Positions 4,858 to 64,000 of a stretch of DNA of 64,000 bases are shown piece by piece (positions within the stretch are counted from its first letter, which is position 1; every line of letters starts with the position of its first letter). The notes under the pieces were generated by a model. That model worked only from the letters and a program-made list of their open reading frames with translations. It made no database searches and was not told the origin of the DNA. The DNA comes from an uncultured Bacteroides sp. (GTDB lineage: Bacteria > Bacteroidota > Bacteroidia > Bacteroidales > Bacteroidaceae), in contig CASFGA010000009.1 in NCBI GenBank assembly GCA_949294185.1, forward strand, positions 61,968-125,967, read 5' to 3'. The translations under genes and the position numbers were made by a program.

Positions 4858-5763
4858 CTATTTGCAACGCTCGGGTTCCCAATCCTCCAGCGGAGACTTG
4901 CGCTGAGACGCGCCATATTCCGATTCAATCTTGTTACGCAAAGACCGCATCTCGCTTTGCAACCGGTCCACCTCCCTGCAAAACTGTTCATCCGACAGAT
5001 GCGTATAGCGCTCGGGGCGATAACGCATATCACGCAAATTATCTTCAGCCCGCATATAAGCACGGTTCGCCGTCCGATAAGCAGCCAGAAACTTCCGATC
5101 CTGCAAATTTTTGCTTTTGGCATCTTCCTTTTCTTCCGCCTCCCCGGAAGTATCAGCTACAGAGTCCGAGCCTGTAGAAACAGCATCGAATGACTGTTCA
5201 TCCACATTAAGTGAACTGTTTTCTTTTATCGAATTTGCCGTTTCCATCAGCGATTGGCCTACTTTCATCATGTCGGCCGCAACAAGATCCCACCGGCTCG
5301 GCTCCTCATTCTCCTGTTCAACAAGCGAACGCAAATATTCAGCCATCGGCTTGGCCTCTTCATCGCCCTGTTCTATCCGTTTTTCCGTCCAATAGAGAGC
5401 GGCACTGTTCGATTGCGGCACGCCCTTCCCGCTAAAATAAGCAGCCGCCAGCATGGTCTGGCCTAACAGATTCCCGCCACAGGCAGAAGCAGCATACCAC
5501 CGGGCCGCCTCCACATCATCGGCCGGCACCCCATATCCTTGCGAATAAAAGAGACCGACCATAGCCTGCGCTTCATGATTGCCGTCTTGAGCTATCGGCA
5601 AAAGGAGTTTCAAAGCGGTTTCATAATCTTTCTTATTGAACGCATCATAGACCGCCTCCATCGAATTCGTTTCCTGCGCCTGGATAAGGTCTGGAGACAC
5701 GCCTCCCCATGCCATTATCACAAACAGCAGACGAGCCAGACATTTAGACAAAGTCGTTTTCAT
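4858..5763 (-). CDS. Secreted SEL1-like repeat protein with an unassigned C-terminal helical domain
   Basis: N-terminal signal-like segment; SEL1 repeats (AQAMVGLFYSQGYGVPADDVEAARWY; GQTMLAAAYFSGKGVPQSNSAALYW); acidic linker; promoter box CAAAGATA at 5804-5811. Confidence 0.75.
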   Translation of the reverse strand: MKTTLSKCLARLLFVIMAWGGVSPDLIQAQETNSMEAVYDAFNKKDYETALKLLLPIAQDGNHEAQAMVGLFYSQGYGVPADDVEAARWYAASACGGNLLGQTMLAAAYFSGKGVPQSNSAALYWTEKRIEQGDEEAKPMAEYLRSLVEQENEEPSRWDLVAADMMKVGQSLMETANSIKENSSLNVDEQSFDAVSTGSDSVADTSGEAEEKEDAKSKNLQDRKFLAAYRTANRAYMRAEDNLRDMRYRPERYTHLSDEQFCREVDRLQSEMRSLRNKIESEYGASQRKSPLEDWEPERCK

Positions 5764-5956: not shown

Positions 5957-6027
5957 TTGGACTACCTGGATTCGAACCAAGACAAACAGAACCAAAACCT
6001 GTTGTGCTGCCATTACACCATAGTCCA
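5957..6027 (-). tRNA. tRNA-Gln(TTG)
   Basis: Reverse complement TGGACTATGGTGTAATGGCAGCACAACAGGTTTTGGTTCTGTTTGTCTTGGTTCGAATCCAGGTAGTCCAA: TGGACTA/TAGTCCA acceptor stem, TTG anticodon loop, GTTCGAATC T-loop; CCA not encoded. Confidence 0.95.
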
Positions 6028-6161: not shown

Positions 6162-9100
6162 ATGAAAAAATTCTTATTAAGCATAGCCTTGGGAGCTGTC
6201 GCCGCAAATGCAGCAGCAGCCATCACACCCATGTGGCTGCGTGACGTACGCATATCTCCCGACGGAAAGGAAATCGCATTCTGCTACAAAGGGGATATCT
6301 ATAAGGTTCCGGCATCGGGAGGAGAGGCCATCCGGCTTACCACACAGGATTCGTATGAATCTTCACCCGTATGGTCGCCCGACGGACAGGAGATAGCCTT
6401 TGCCAGTGACCGGTACGGAAATTTCGACATCTTCATCATGTCGGCAGACGGAGGGAATGCACGCAGACTGACAACACATTCCACCGCAGAGATTCCTTCG
6501 GCATTCACGCCCGACGGAAAGGCTGTCGTGTTTTCGGCTACCATACAAGACCCCGCTGCAAGCGTACTTTTCCCCAGATCGGTACTGACAGAACTTTATA
6601 AAGTCCCGACAACCGGTGGGAGAACCGAACAGATGCTGGGAACTCCGGCGGAATATGTCTGTTTCAACGGTTCTGGGAACAAGTTCCTCTATCAAGACCG
6701 CAAGGGACTGGAAGACGAATGGCGCAAGCACCATACATCCTCCGTTACCCGCGATATCTGGCTGTACGATACAAAGAGCGGAAAGCATACGAACCTGACC
6801 AACCGGGCAGGCGAAGACCGCAATGCCGTCTGGTCGGCCGATGAAAAAGAAGTCTATCTGCTGAGCGAACGAAACGGAGGCTCGATGAATGTATATGCTT
6901 TCCCGATAGAAAATCCGCAGGAGATACGCTCAATAACTTCTTTTGATACGCATCCCGTCCGTTTTTTGTCTATAGCAAACGAAACGCTATGCTATACATA
7001 CGACGGCGAAATCTATATCCAGCCCACCGGAGGAAAGCCGCAAAAGGTAGCCATTACCCTGACACGCGACGACGAATCCATGCCCGAACCGCTCAGCTTC
7101 ACACGCGGAGCAAGCGAAGCTACTGTCTCCCCCGACGGAAAACAGGTGGCATTCACCGTTCGCGGCGAAGTTTTTGTCACTTCAACGGAATATGGCACGA
7201 CCAAGCAGGTCACTCACACGCCCGAAGCGGAGGAAGGACTGTCTTTCGGAGCAGACAACCGTTCGCTGGTTTATGCAAGTGAGCGAAACGGCAACTGGAA
7301 TCTGTACACCGCCAAGATTGTCCGCAAGGATGATGCCAATTTCCCCAACGCTACACTGATTGAAGAAGAAGCCTTGCTGCCCGACAACAGAACGGAACGT
7401 CAGCAACCTCAGTTCTCTCCCGACGGAAAAGAAATAGCATTCATAGAAGACCGCACCCGTCTGATGGTAATAAACCTCGCCACCAAAAAGGTTCGCCAGA
7501 TTACAGACGGGTCGGAATGGTATGAAACAACGGGCAGCTTCGACTACATGTGGTCGCCAGACGGCAAATGGTTTACGCTAACCCTCATCGGCAACCGTCA
7601 CGACCCATATACCGACATAGCCTTAGTCAAGGCCGACGGGAAAAGCCGTCCTGTCAACCTGACCAACAGCGGCTATACCAGCGGGGCTCCACGGTGGGTG
7701 ATGGATGGGAACGCCATTCTTTTCACTACCGAACGATATGGAATGCGCAGTCATGCTTCCTGGGGGTCACTGGATGATGTCATGCTTGCATTTGTCAACA
7801 AAGATTCTTACGACAAGTTCCGGCTGAACAAAGAGGACTACGAACTCTTGAAAGAGTTGGAAAAAGAGCAGGAAAAGGCTGCTTCCGGAGAAAGTGACAA
7901 GGACAAAGACAATGAAAAGAAAGAAAAAGCGCCGAAAGACATTGTGGTAGAGCTCGATGGTATAGAAGACCGTATCGTCCGCCTGACTCCCAACTCATCG
8001 AGCATCGCATCGGCCCTCGTTTCTGCCGACGGGGAAAACCTGTATTATCTGGCCTCGTTCGAGGGAGGATTTGACATGTGGAAGATGGACTTGCGCAAAC
8101 ACGAGACCAAACTGCTGCACAAGATGGATGCCGGATGGGCAAACATGGAGACTGACAGGGAAGGGGAAAATATCTTCATTCTCGGCGGAAGCGGTATGCA
8201 GAAGATGGAAATCGCTTCTGAAGAACTGAAACCGGTCGCATACCGGGCAGAAATGAAAATGGACCTAGCGGCAGAACGGGCCTATATGTTCGAACATGTA
8301 TACAAACAGGAAAAGAAATGCTTCTATACAGAGTCTATGCACGGCGTGGACTGGGAAGCCATGACAGCTGCCTATCGCAAGTTTCTGCCGCATATCAACA
8401 ACAATTACGATTTCGCCGAACTGCTCAGCGAATGGTTGGGCGAACTGAATGTTTCCCATACCGGCGGACGGTATTACCCGGACGGAAAAGGAGAGACAAC
8501 GGCCAGTCTGGGATTACTTTTCGACTGGAACTACAGCGGAAACGGACTCTCCATCGACGAAGTCATTGAAAAAGGCCCGTTCGACCGCAAGAGCACAAAG
8601 GTAACCAAAGGCACCGTCATCGAAAAGATAGACGGAAAATCCATCGATGCCGATACAGACTACTTTGCCCTGCTGAACGGAAAGACGGGGAAAAAGACAT
8701 TGGTTTCCTTTTACAACCCCCAAACCAAGGAACATTGGGACGAGGTAATCAAACCGATAGGAAACGGAGAGCTCAACACCCTGCTTTACGAACGGTGGGT
8801 AAAGCAAAGAGCCGCCGATGTCAAGAGATGGTCGGACGGACGCTTGGGGTATGTACACATCGAGTCAATGGACGACGGCAGCTTCCGCACGGTCTATTCG
8901 GATATCCTCGGGAAATACAATGACTGTGAAGGCATCGTAATCGACACCCGCTTTAACGGAGGAGGCCGTTTGCACGAGGACATTGAAATCTTGTTCAGCG
9001 GCAAAAAATATCTTACGCAAGTAATCCGCGGCCGTTCTGCCTGCGACATGCCGAGCCGCCGATGGAACAAACCGTCCATCATGCTACAGTGCGAAGCCAA

Positions 9101-25446: not shown

Positions 25447-25980
25447 ATGCATCCGTTAGAATTATTCAGATATTGTCCGAAATGCGGCTCGTCGCGCTTC
25501 GAAATCCACAATGGGAAATCAAAGAAATGTGCCGACTGTGGATTTACTTACTACTTCAACTCCAGTGCCGCCACGGTGGCCTTCATCTTAAACCACCGGA
25601 ATGAACTGCTAGTGTGCCGCCGGGGAAAAGAACCTGCCAAGGGGACACTCGACCTTTCCGGAGGATTCATCGACATGTATGAAACGGGCGAAGAGGGTGT
25701 CGCCCGCGAAGTAAAAGAAGAAACGGGACTGACGGTAACGGAGGCTAAATATTTGTTCTCACTCCCCAACCGGTATCTGTATTCGGGTTTTCTCGTGCAT
25801 ACGCTCGACCAGTTCTTTTTATGCAAAGTGTCTGACGACAGCAAACTGAAGGCGATGGACGATGTGGCCGAATCTTTCTGGCTGCCGCTTGACAAGGTTA
25901 ATCCCGAAGAATTCGGTTTGGAATCTGTCCGAAAAGGAATATCATTCTTTCTGGAAGCATATAAACAGCATAGAATATGA
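25447..25980 (+). CDS. NUDIX hydrolase with an N-terminal zinc ribbon
   Basis: CPKCG...CADCG plus Nudix box GGFIDMYETGEEGVAREVKEETG. Confidence 0.92.
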   Translation: MHPLELFRYCPKCGSSRFEIHNGKSKKCADCGFTYYFNSSAATVAFILNHRNELLVCRRGKEPAKGTLDLSGGFIDMYETGEEGVAREVKEETGLTVTEAKYLFSLPNRYLYSGFLVHTLDQFFLCKVSDDSKLKAMDDVAESFWLPLDKVNPEEFGLESVRKGISFFLEAYKQHRI

Positions 25981-44745: not shown

Positions 44746-44900
44746 GGTATCAGTGTTTTTATGTTAGTATTATCTCATTGTCACTCCATACGAATGATTG
44801 TTTCAAAGATACAAATAAATCTGATATATTCCACCAATTTCATGGAAGTTAACCAAGAAACCGGTATCTTTGCAACCTCATTTATTTAAACAAAGACATT

Positions 44901-52049: not shown

Positions 52050-52065
52050 CGCCCGAAATAAAAAA

Positions 52066-52112
52066 GTGGAAAGATTTGAGTAGCTTGCAACCACGGAAAA
52101 AAATGCTAAAAC
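52066..52112 (+). promoter_or_regulatory. SAM-II-type riboswitch candidate
   Basis: GTGG-AAA-GATTT-GAG-TAGC-TTGCAA-CCAC-GGAAAAAAAT-GCTA-AAA: GTGG/CCAC stem, TAGC/GCTA pseudoknot and the GAUUU, UUGCAA and GCUAAAA words of SAM-II, upstream of metK. Confidence 0.75.
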
Positions 52113-52196
52113 ACATAGTTTGATTCCTTGATGATTACTTCTCTACTCTGTCCGTACACGGATAAACCATCATTAAACAACTTAATTATCAAAAGA

Positions 52197-53489
52197 ATGG
52201 GATACTTATTCACATCCGAATCGGTGTCTGAAGGACACCCCGACAAAGTGGCGGATCAGATATCCGACGCTGTGCTTGACAAACTGTTGGCTTACGACCC
52301 CAGTTCGAAAGTAGCTTGCGAAACTCTGGTGACTACCGGACAGGTGGTACTGGCAGGAGAAGTGAAATCCAAAGCGTATATCGACCTCCAAAGGGTAGCA
52401 CGCGAAGTGATCAACCGCATAGGCTATACCAAGAGCGAATACATGTTCGAAGGGAATTCGTGCGGCGTATTCTCCGCCATTCATGAGCAGAGTCCGGACA
52501 TTAACCGGGGAGTGGAACGCGACGACCCTATGGACCAGGGAGCAGGAGACCAGGGCATGATGTTCGGCTATGCTACCAATGAAACCGAAAACTATATGCC
52601 TCTTTCACTCGACCTTGCACACAAACTGCTGAAAGTATTGGCCGAAATCCGCCGCGAAGGTAAGGAAATGACCTATCTACGGCCGGATTCCAAAAGTCAG
52701 GTGACTATCGAATACGACGACAACCGCCGTCCGGTACGCATTGACACAATAGTCGTATCTACTCAGCACGATGAGTTCATCCGTCCGACAGACGGTTCAA
52801 AAGAAGCCCAATTAAAGGCCGACGAAGAGATGCTTGCGCAAATCCGAAAGGATGTCATTGATATCCTGATGCCGCGCGTCATTGCCGAAATCCATAATCC
52901 GGAGGTATTGAAGCTGTTCAACGGACAGATAAAATATTTCGTCAACCCCACAGGCAAGTTTGTTATCGGCGGTCCCCACGGCGATACAGGTCTGACCGGA
53001 CGTAAGATTATTGTTGACACCTATGGAGGTGCCGGTGCACACGGAGGCGGAGCCTTTTCCGGAAAAGATCCGAGCAAGGTAGACCGTAGCGCAGCCTATG
53101 CCGCACGGCACATTGCAAAGAATCTGGTGGCAGCCGGAGTATCAGACGAAATTCTGGTACAGGTATCCTATGCCATCGGAGTTGCCCGTCCCATTAACAT
53201 TTATGTAAATACATACGGACGAAGCCACGTATCCATGAGCGACGGAGAGATAGCTCAAAAAATAGATGAAATCTTTGATATGCGTCCGCGCGCCATAGAA
53301 GAACGGCTGAAGTTGCGTAATCCTATTTATAGCGAGACAGCTGCTTACGGACACATGGGACGCGAACCCAAAACCGTGGTCAAGCATTTCGAATCCATTT
53401 ACGAAGGAAACAAAGACATTGAAGTAGAGCTCTTCACCTGGGAAAAACTGGATTATGTAGACAAGGTAAAGGCCGCTTTCGGACTCTGA
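52197..53489 (+). CDS. metK: S-adenosylmethionine synthetase
   Basis: [32 protein letters not shown] and [10 protein letters not shown] motifs. Confidence 0.98.
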
Positions 53490-62678: not shown

Positions 62679-63680
62679 ATGAAAGTTATTGTTGACGACA
62701 AGATACCTTACATAAGGGAAGCATTGGAACGACTGGCCGACAAGGTCATCTACCTGCCGGGAAAAGACATTACAGCCGATATAGTAAGAGACGCCGACGC
62801 GCTGATTATACGTACCCGCACACATTGCAATAAAGAACTGCTCGAAGGAAGCCGGGTTCGCTTCATCGGCACGGCCACCATCGGATTCGATCATATTGAT
62901 ACCGAATATTGCCGCTCGGCAGGAATCGCATGGAGCAACTGTCCGGGATGCAATGCCGGAGCAGTGGAACAATACGTTCATGCCTCACTGCTGCTGCTGC
63001 AAAAAGAGAAAAATGTCAGTCTGAAGCAGTCTTGTCTGGGTATTGTAGGAGTGGAACATGTAGGAAGCCGCATTGCAAACCTGGCACAACGGTTGGGAAT
63101 GCGGATTTTACTGAATGATCCCCCTCGTCATGACCGCGGTGAAAACGAATTCTGCTCCTTACAAAAACTGGCTGAAGAATGCAACATAATTACTTTTCAT
63201 ACGCCCTTAATCCGGAAAGGAATCTACAAGACATTTCATTTGGCCGATCATTCTTTCTTCAATATGTTGGAAAAAAAGCCTTATCTTATCAACACTTCCC
63301 GCGGAGAGGTGGTAGACACTGAAGCTTTGCTTGCGGCAATGAATGAAAAGATAGCCGGTGTAATAGTCGATGTATGGGAAAACGAGCCGGATATCAACCG
63401 GGAATTGCTCGACAAGGCATTTATCGCCACACCTCATATAGCCGGTTACTCCGCCGACGGCAAGGCAAACGCCACACGCATGGTATTGGAAGCCTTCTGC
63501 CGGTTCTTTCAAAAACCGATGGACTTCCATATATCTCTCCCGGAAATAACCGGTTCCGACAAGAATGAAGATATTCGTACACTGCAACAATATAATCCGC
63601 ATGACGACTGCAACGCCTTGCGCCTGCACCCGGAAGCTTTTGAAAAACTTCGCGAGCACTACCGGCTGCGCAGAGAATAA
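62679..63680 (+). CDS. pdxB: 4-phosphoerythronate dehydrogenase (NAD-binding loop altered)
   Basis: IRTRT, TATIGFDHID, NCPGCNA, FHTPL, INTSRG, DVWENEP and TPHIAGYS motifs; GIVGVEHVG replaces GxGxxG. Confidence 0.88.
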   Translation: MKVIVDDKIPYIREALERLADKVIYLPGKDITADIVRDADALIIRTRTHCNKELLEGSRVRFIGTATIGFDHIDTEYCRSAGIAWSNCPGCNAGAVEQYVHASLLLLQKEKNVSLKQSCLGIVGVEHVGSRIANLAQRLGMRILLNDPPRHDRGENEFCSLQKLAEECNIITFHTPLIRKGIYKTFHLADHSFFNMLEKKPYLINTSRGEVVDTEALLAAMNEKIAGVIVDVWENEPDINRELLDKAFIATPHIAGYSADGKANATRMVLEAFCRFFQKPMDFHISLPEITGSDKNEDIRTLQQYNPHDDCNALRLHPEAFEKLREHYRLRRE

Positions 63681-63704
63681 GACCAACCATTCACGTACAG
63701 GCAT

Positions 63705-63768
63705 AAAAAAAGGAGTACCGCTGTACTCCAACCTTTGTTAACCTTAAATCTAATACTATGAAAAACAC
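63705..63768 (-). ncRNA. Candidate trans-acting sRNA, ~65 nt
   Basis: Complete minus-strand promoter TTTG(63800-63803)-19 nt-TATCTTTG(63773-63780), then GTGTTTTTCATAGTATTAGATTTAAGGTTAACAAAGGTT and terminator GGAGTAC-AGCG-GTACTCC-T7; 5' end estimated. Confidence 0.7.
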
Positions 63769-63845
63769 GATGCAAAGATACGGACTTTAGGCAATTCTGC
63801 AAATTATCCCAATCAAAAATCGTGTTTTATAACATATATTAGAAA

Positions 63846-63998
63846 TTACAAACCTAATTTTTCAGATATTTCCAACATCCGGCGAATCGGCTTGATGGCA
63901 TCTTTTGCTATATTTTCATCGACCTGCACTTCCGGCCACTCGTATTTCAGCGTATTATAAAGCTTTTCAAGCGTATTCAGACGCATGAAATTGCATTC
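63846..63998 (-). CDS. nadA: Quinolinate synthase, C-terminal part (continues beyond the window)
   Basis: Not in the ORF track. Manual translation gives ECNFMRLNTLEKLYNTLKYEWPEVQVDENIAKDAIKPIRRMLEISEKLGL*, the NadA C-x-x-M...PIRRML tail. Confidence 0.85.
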   Translation of the reverse strand, partial: ECNFMRLNTLEKLYNTLKYEWPEVQVDENIAKDAIKPIRRMLEISEKLGL

Positions 63999-64000
63999 GT

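Follow-up and report, generated by a model that had tools for sequence, protein, structure and literature searches.

A FopS-family small RNA gene between nadA and pdxB of a Phocaeicola-like genome, and a candidate operator upstream of FopS genes

Introduction

The 165 nt that separate the convergent genes nadA and pdxB in the 64-kb stretch of DNA analysed here (the window) raise the question of whether they encode a regulatory RNA, to which family such an RNA would belong and on which mRNAs it would act. The preliminary description of this DNA had seen in the gap a self-contained gene for an sRNA of about 65 nt that could act in trans by pairing across many start codons. It pointed to a resemblance to the FopS sRNAs of B. 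thetaiotaomicron, allowed that the element may be undescribed should it not belong to them, and called it the strongest unannotated element of the window.

FopS was described in B. thetaiotaomicron as a "family of paralogous sRNAs" with 14 copies, most of which are intergenic and have their own promoter (Ruttiger et al., Nat Commun 2025; PMC11697453). Its members, about 65 or about 70 nt long, are built from a single-stranded 5' seed (R1/R1') and a Rho-independent terminator and are preceded by a canonical sigma-ABfr promoter (PMC11697453). The genes are induced by bile salts, for which "an unknown transcriptional regulator" was postulated, and the RNAs are bound by the RRM-1 protein RbpB (PMC11697453). 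FopS represses the susC gene BT_3983 of PUL72 and other PUL leaders through start-codon pairing; for FopS-10, the block of susC translation at the start codon was established by in-line probing, EMSA with compensatory mutants, in-vitro translation and antagonism by RbpB (PMC11697453). Conservation was reported "within Bacteroidaceae" only, with 12-15 copies per genome (PMC11697453).

Results

A promoter, a 64-nt RNA and a terminator occupy the gap

Reading both strands, we find a 64-nt sRNA gene on the minus strand between the convergent genes pdxB and nadA, and the coordinates bear out the arrangement first described, namely a minus-strand promoter, some 40 nt of body and a 7-bp terminator with T7. 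The flanking genes had also been named correctly: pdxB (4-phosphoerythronate dehydrogenase; 62679..63680, plus strand, stop 63678-63680) clears the NCBIfam NF001309 cut-off of 434 with 453.3 bits, and the 3' end of nadA (quinolinate synthase; 63846..64000, minus strand, stop 63848-63846) was identified from the NCBIfam NadA C-terminus and the ORF list. The PdxB closest to that of the window, at 89% identity, belongs to an uncultured Phocaeicola MAG (L001); those of other species representatives reach 74% at most. This places the DNA in a Phocaeicola-like genome that has no close representative in the collection.

The -33 box TTTG (63800..63803, minus strand), read directly and kept in the class I profile, is separated by a 19-nt spacer from the -7 box TATCTTTG (63773..63780, minus strand), which is of the Bacteroides sigma-ABfr type (TAnnTTTG); both boxes are invariant between the window and L001. 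The first base of the -7 box is at -12 relative to the RNA start in 119/123 family copies, as it is in the window. To judge by these motifs (-33 TTTG / -7 TAnnTTTG), the promoter would be of the sigma-ABfr type and not of the PM2 type found at GibS. Five bases past the -7 box begins the RNA sequence GTGTTTTTCATAGTATTAGATTTAAGGTTAACAAAGGTT, whose first base, 63768, is position 1 of the Rfam model; from this predicted 5' end, G63768, to the end of the U-run the RNA (63705..63768, minus strand) measures 64 nt, compared with a median of 68 nt (range 61-92) in the sampled family.

The seed region R1/R1' (nt 1-35, GUGUUUUUCAUAGUAUUAGAUUUAAGGUUAACAAA; 63734..63768, minus strand) equals the published 70% consensus. 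It lies in a 42-nt stretch before the hairpin that is 71% A+U and mostly unpaired when folded; the seed is single-stranded in the MFE and centroid structures alike, with a mean P(unpaired) of 0.68 over nt 1-21 in the ensemble. A Rho-independent terminator, found by both the terminator scan and the fold, follows: the hairpin GGAGTAC-AGCG-GTACTCC (63712..63729, minus strand), with a 7-bp stem and the loop AGCG, is succeeded by a U7 tract (63705..63711, minus strand; terminator scan). The whole nadA-pdxB gap is filled by this unit.

The RNA is a member of the FopS family

Rfam model RF04319 (FopS) matches 63768..63702 over its full length (model positions 1-71/71) at 78.2 bits against a gathering threshold of 56 (E 8.4e-12), level with the 78.1 bits of a B. 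thetaiotaomicron FopS copy. When the model was run over the whole 64-kb window (E 8.9e-10, far beyond chance), this was the sole FopS copy found, and it is among the three matches in all that reach the gathering threshold in a whole-window scan with Rfam 15. Nucleotides 1-35 are identical to the FopS 70% consensus query given in Supplementary Data 2 of PMC11697453, to the Rfam consensus and to FopS-10. The resemblance to FopS pointed out earlier was thus sound, and the suggestion that the element may be undescribed falls, as it belongs to a described family.

FopS-10, as specified by its in-vitro transcription primers, has a 5' part identical to that of the window RNA up to the stem. The two differ in the stem itself (GGAGCAA-GGCG-TTGCTCC in FopS-10), where the upper three pairs and the loop have changed and the stem changes are compensated. 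Both have an unstructured 5' seed, a single terminator hairpin, a U-run and a sigma-ABfr promoter, and fall in the class of about 65 nt; FopS-10 resides in B. thetaiotaomicron, the window copy in a Phocaeicola-like host between nadA and pdxB. GibS (RF04182) has the R1 seed in common with the window RNA, and the first ~30 nt align almost perfectly, but the window RNA reaches only 40.1 bits against a gathering threshold of 115, with just the 5' R1 part and the U-run aligning; GibS carries an R2 seed and central structured domains that the window RNA lacks (~90 model positions are deleted), its promoter is of the PM2 type where that of the window copy is canonical, and it does not bind the FopS target susC BT_3983 (PMC11697453). 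Against BTnc231 (RF04180) the window RNA scores 24.3 bits, below the gathering threshold of 80.4, and only the common 5' motif aligns.

Family membership and the promoter/terminator anatomy of the window copy are hence well established, and we regard it as very probable that the element is a functional FopS-family copy in a Phocaeicola-like Bacteroidaceae genome. It is already known in kind: an ordinary extra copy of a described and curated family and no new type of regulator. What had been called the strongest unannotated element is a real gene, but a textbook FopS found by a routine Rfam 15 scan; as such a scan would annotate it, the finding itself carries no novelty.

Conservation points to selection on the RNA

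In the alignment of the window with L001, the 165-nt intergenic region contains 19 differences, all of which lie in the spacer between the palindrome described below and the -33 box, in the -33/-7 spacer, or downstream of the U-run. The 86 nt of 63787-63702, which take in the -7 box, the RNA and the U-run, are invariant; the RNA, for which conservation of the body sequence had been named as a check, is 100% identical. By a rough estimate of our own, the chance that none of the 19 changes hits the 64-nt RNA is ~9e-5. The terminator tells the same story across the family. In an alignment of 15 members, in which three rows had the linker or T-run trimmed or padded by one or a few bases for register, 99% of cells are paired and 5/7 stem pairs show compensatory double changes; the covariation is 0.751 compared with 0.230 in shuffles (0/500 as high), and slid registers give no more than 0.144. 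A stable hairpin stands directly before the T-run in 120/121 sampled copies with a T-run, which represent 75 distinct sequences, and the commonest variant among the 121 is the hairpin of the window. Judged from these sequence comparisons, the RNA is under purifying selection.

Of the 80 pdxB loci compared, L001 alone carries FopS at this spot beside pdxB, and neither an empty-site comparison nor insertion boundaries could be derived from the pdxB neighbourhoods of 80 species. Another FopS copy, with two seed mismatches, lies ~270 nt downstream of pdxB on the plus strand in Ca. Phocaeicola gallinarum (L007 3772-3842); it looks like an independent arrival beside the same gene.

Transcripts with the FopS sequence are abundant in gut RNA libraries

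Transcript data were taken from assembled contigs of public runs, along which the depth of words from the window was counted. Transcripts with this sequence are abundant in gut RNA libraries: in three gut/faecal metatranscriptomes the word depth at 63708-63731 was 14135, 6753 and 4800, against 23, 3.4 and 0 in the flanking genes, and over 63708-63755 the depth was 200-2000x that of the flanks (a family-level figure, from contigs only). In a run of unknown type, the depth was 184 at 63708-63731, with a peak of 345 in the adjacent bin and 8.6 in the flank. Two RNA-library contigs, one from a size-fractionated ncRNA-seq of mouse gut and the other from isolate RNA-seq (X26 and X29), show no differences over 63700/63702..63768 and end 1 nt beyond 63768. 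These data agree with a short RNA that is abundant and has its 5' end where predicted. Because the sequence is common to paralogues and to many species, and because contig ends may reflect graph branching, they support the family and are not proof for this locus. The sequencing runs, which are communities, hold many contigs in which the FopS core is carried with different flanks.

No target stands out within the window

The preliminary description had proposed pairing with generic start codons, on the grounds that the complement of the body reads TTAACCTTAAATCTAATACTATGAAAAACAC, like a leader and start codon, and that the genes at 6162, 14240 and 39698 begin ATGAAAAA. Both readings of the letters are accurate; the proposed pairing found no support. 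In a simple duplex calculation, the 58 start regions of the window gave a mean of -10.8 kcal/mol with the seed (sd 2.8) and a best value of -16.4, whereas shuffled seeds reached a mean best energy of -16.7 kcal/mol. The three named genes gave -9.6, -14.5 and -8.6 kcal/mol, respectively, and no start region of the window, these three included, beats chance. For comparison, the validated BT_3983 leader, whose match to the seed is bipartite (AAUCUUAAAU ... UAUGAGAA), gave -20.1 kcal/mol. Contiguous complementarity on both strands of the window likewise revealed nothing above chance, nor did 1.35 Mb of loci when compared with the seed complement in a locked register.

Neither a susC gene nor an rbpB gene lies within the 64-kb window; a 1001-aa ORF at 25977, considered as susC-like, was rejected because it encodes a TPR protein. 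Since published work names specific susC/PUL leaders as targets, of which the window has none, a generic start region as the target is not supported; and with neither a susC gene nor above-chance pairing in the window, the targets are to be sought in the rest of the genome.

A palindrome recurs upstream of FopS genes

Ten nucleotides past the nadA stop begins a near-palindrome, ATGTTATAAAACAC (63822..63835, minus strand), with the consensus ATGTT-N4-AACAT, which starts 67 nt upstream of the RNA 5' end and is invariant between the window and L001. The exact palindrome occurs in 35/123 FopS upstream regions but in only 1/5000 AT-matched control stretches from the same loci, and with at most one mismatch it occurs in 63/123 upstream regions compared with 66/5000 controls. 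Its start positions form two clusters, -67/-68 and -34/-35 relative to the RNA 5' end, and of 40 exact palindromes in 1.41 Mb of locus sequence 36 precede a correctly oriented FopS seed by 20-90 nt. Within the window the palindrome is not enriched (3 matches against 2.5 expected), so its significance comes from the cross-locus comparison only.

The distal class (at about -67) is that of Bacteroides, Phocaeicola and Mediterranea and includes the copies of the window, L001, B. thetaiotaomicron, B. faecis and Mediterranea, whereas the proximal class (at about -35), in which the palindrome overlaps the -33 box, comprises copies of Dysgonomonas, Paludibacter, Muribaculaceae and Parabacteroides; from the Prevotellaceae copies sampled the palindrome is essentially absent. 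Recent duplication does not explain the palindrome, since the stretch that separates it from the promoter boxes shows no conservation. PMC11697453 mentions no palindrome or inverted repeat. A possibility that we take seriously without yet favouring it is that ATGTT-N4-AACAT may be the operator of a transcription factor that switches on the whole FopS family.

In Dysgonomonas sp. 521 (L141 3330-5177), four same-strand FopS copies form a local cluster within 1.85 kb, and three of them have a proximal palindrome.

Read-through from the flanking genes and other explanations of the locus

In the terminator scan, the FopS hairpin is the first terminator downstream of the nadA stop; as none lies between nadA and the element, nadA transcripts probably end at this hairpin too. 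The situation is reminiscent of FopS-14 (BTnc248), a 3'-UTR-derived copy downstream of BT_4331, which likewise has a co-oriented gene upstream with no terminator between, and on this likeness a long precursor that ends at the sRNA terminator would be expected for the window copy. Unlike FopS-14, the window copy has a complete promoter of its own, and its parental gene would be nadA and not BT_4331. In such a read-through, 21 bp can form between the 25 nt that follow the nadA stop (63843-63819) and 63748-63770, which extends from two bases upstream of the RNA start through nt 21 of the seed. The predicted fold of the nadA read-through 3' UTR (-36.1 kcal/mol, z -3.9, 0/200 shuffles as stable) masks the seed, and for that reason only the promoter-initiated RNA may be active. 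This nadA-side complementarity is also present in L001. As a rule for the family an anti-seed block was rejected, with a class I mean of -12.1 kcal/mol compared with -11.1 for shuffled upstream sequence. An invertible promoter between the anti-seed arms was also set aside: the segment they enclose measures only ~48 bp, the repeat is not general and the contigs hold no strand-switch joints.

The lack of a terminator between the nadA stop (63846) and the FopS hairpin, together with the 3'-UTR origin of FopS-14 in B. thetaiotaomicron (PMC11697453), could be taken to mean that the region is nothing but the nadA 3' UTR and its terminator, that the promoter boxes are inactive and that any short RNA arises by processing of nadA mRNA. 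Given that the -7 box occupies the exact position it has in 119/123 family copies, that both boxes are invariant in L001 while the spacers between them have diverged, that the family is mostly intergenic with its own promoter (PMC11697453), and that the RNA contigs end one base before G1 without entering the promoter, we consider this very improbable.

We judge it similarly hard to believe that the copy acts mainly in cis, be it as an antisense RNA or bidirectional terminator for pdxB, or through pdxB read-through that sponges FopS. The pdxB gene ends 24 nt before the U-run and has no convincing terminator of its own ahead of the FopS hairpin, which on the plus strand is followed by only AACCTTTGTT; with so weak a terminator, read-through would carry a perfect FopS complement, and 4/14 B. 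thetaiotaomicron copies were classed as antisense RNAs (PMC11697453). Yet the pdxB-adjacent position is found only in the nearest relative among the 80 pdxB loci, and a position that is not general cannot explain the conservation of the RNA, so that a role in pdxB expression would be at most an additional local effect. That the plus strand encodes a tiny protein of 10 codons, ATGAAAAACACGATGCAAAGATACGGACTTTAG, with the leader-like sequence as a real translation start, is scarcely credible: the complement does resemble an AT-rich leader followed by ATG-AAA-AAC, but in L001 the stop codon is replaced, giving a frame of different length, past ATGAAAAACAC the family keeps only the complement of the -7 box, and sORFs were ruled out at the B. 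thetaiotaomicron loci by the family's authors (PMC11697453).

FopS is spread across Bacteroidales

At least 120 stretches of Bacteroidales genomes contain the 27-nt seed exactly when its position 12 may vary. Among the matches listed, the hosts are species representatives labelled Bacteroides, Phocaeicola, Mediterranea, Prevotella/Segatella, Paraprevotella, Alloprevotella and Muribaculaceae, with Paludibacter, Dysgonomonas, Parabacteroides, Proteiniphilum, Porphyromonas and Odoribacter as further labels. Eighteen loci were scanned with the Rfam model, drawn from Paludibacter, Dysgonomonadaceae (including Dysgonomonas and Ca. Symbiothrix), Prevotellaceae (Prevotella, Segatella), Muribaculaceae (including Muribaculum), Parabacteroides, Proteiniphilum, Mediterranea, Phocaeicola and B. 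thetaiotaomicron, and all 18 score above the gathering threshold (67.6-80.8 bits). FopS passes the Rfam threshold across Bacteroidales and not in Bacteroidaceae alone, which goes beyond the source paper; the families sampled are Prevotellaceae, Muribaculaceae, Dysgonomonadaceae, Paludibacteraceae and Tannerellaceae, together with MAGs labelled Porphyromonadaceae or Odoribacter.

FopS sequence also turns up in phages. Bacteroides phage BX-TP2, an induced temperate phage (PQ571285.1, about 44785-44871; L201 954-1040), has a complete FopS unit, with a half-palindrome, promoter, seed and terminator, past its last annotated gene and ~950 bp from the end of the record. Two origins are conceivable: cargo by which the phage lowers SusC-type receptors, or a piece of host DNA from the prophage border. 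A phage copy of FopS was remarked on in PMC11697453, and this observation agrees with it. FopS fragments were also seen in three faecal phage contigs.

Discussion

We propose the following working model for the window copy, by analogy with its relatives. Its canonical sigma-ABfr promoter (TTTG-19-TATCTTTG) would start transcription at or beside G63768, and the resulting 64-nt RNA would end at the 7-bp hairpin and U7. Nucleotides 1-33 would then pair with the leaders of genes elsewhere in the genome, mostly those for susC-like outer-membrane transporters, and this seed-leader pairing would block ribosome binding. The RRM-1 protein RbpB would bind the same 5' part and counteract the repression; the part bound by RbpB in B. 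thetaiotaomicron is identical in the window RNA. The targets, the link to RbpB and the induction by bile salts are all inferred for the window copy from its homology to FopS-10 of B. thetaiotaomicron. Taken together, the RF04319 match, the seed identity with FopS-10 and the published consensus, and the FopS-10 work (PMC11697453) favour the core of what had been proposed at the outset, a self-contained gene for an RNA of about 65 nt that would act in trans on initiation regions, here through its 5' end.

Proteobacteria, too, have short sRNAs in several paralogous copies, OmrA/OmrB and Qrr1-5, in which, as in FopS, the 5' seed is conserved, the terminators vary and the regulons overlap; that their targets include outer-membrane and TonB-dependent receptor mRNAs is established knowledge and is discussed in PMC11697453. 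These sRNAs are unrelated to FopS in sequence and depend on Hfq, whereas FopS has an RRM-1 protein as antagonist, and the copy number of FopS (12-15 per genome) is much above theirs.

For the window itself, the outcome is an annotation: a Phocaeicola-like genome carries FopS, and the RNA is the same, base for base, as that of copies in several other genera. Only the upstream palindrome and the spread across the order lead beyond the source paper. Given that spread, the FopS-SusC-RbpB circuit may be general in the glycan metabolism of gut Bacteroidales. If the palindrome is indeed an operator, the regulator and the FopS regulon would be far older and broader than reported, belonging to the order Bacteroidales and not to the family Bacteroidaceae, and the palindrome would offer a concrete handle for finding the regulator through which bile or membrane stress leads to PUL repression.

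Several smaller observations accompany these results. Three MAGs labelled Desulfovibrio, Clostridium and Staphylococcus (L044, L113 and L170) contain Bacteroidales pdxB or FopS sequence; the labels are probably due to binning contamination or mislabelling. In L113, L117, L099 and L125, tRNA genes lie a few hundred to a few thousand bases from FopS copies. Elsewhere in the window, a tRNA gene (5957-6027, minus strand; Rfam, 58.3 bits) is situated between the ORF at 4858-5763 and the 1077-aa ORF that starts at 6162, and a SAM-II (long-loop) riboswitch (52060-52119, plus strand; 65.1 bits against a gathering threshold of 44) lies directly 5' of the ORF at 52128-53489.
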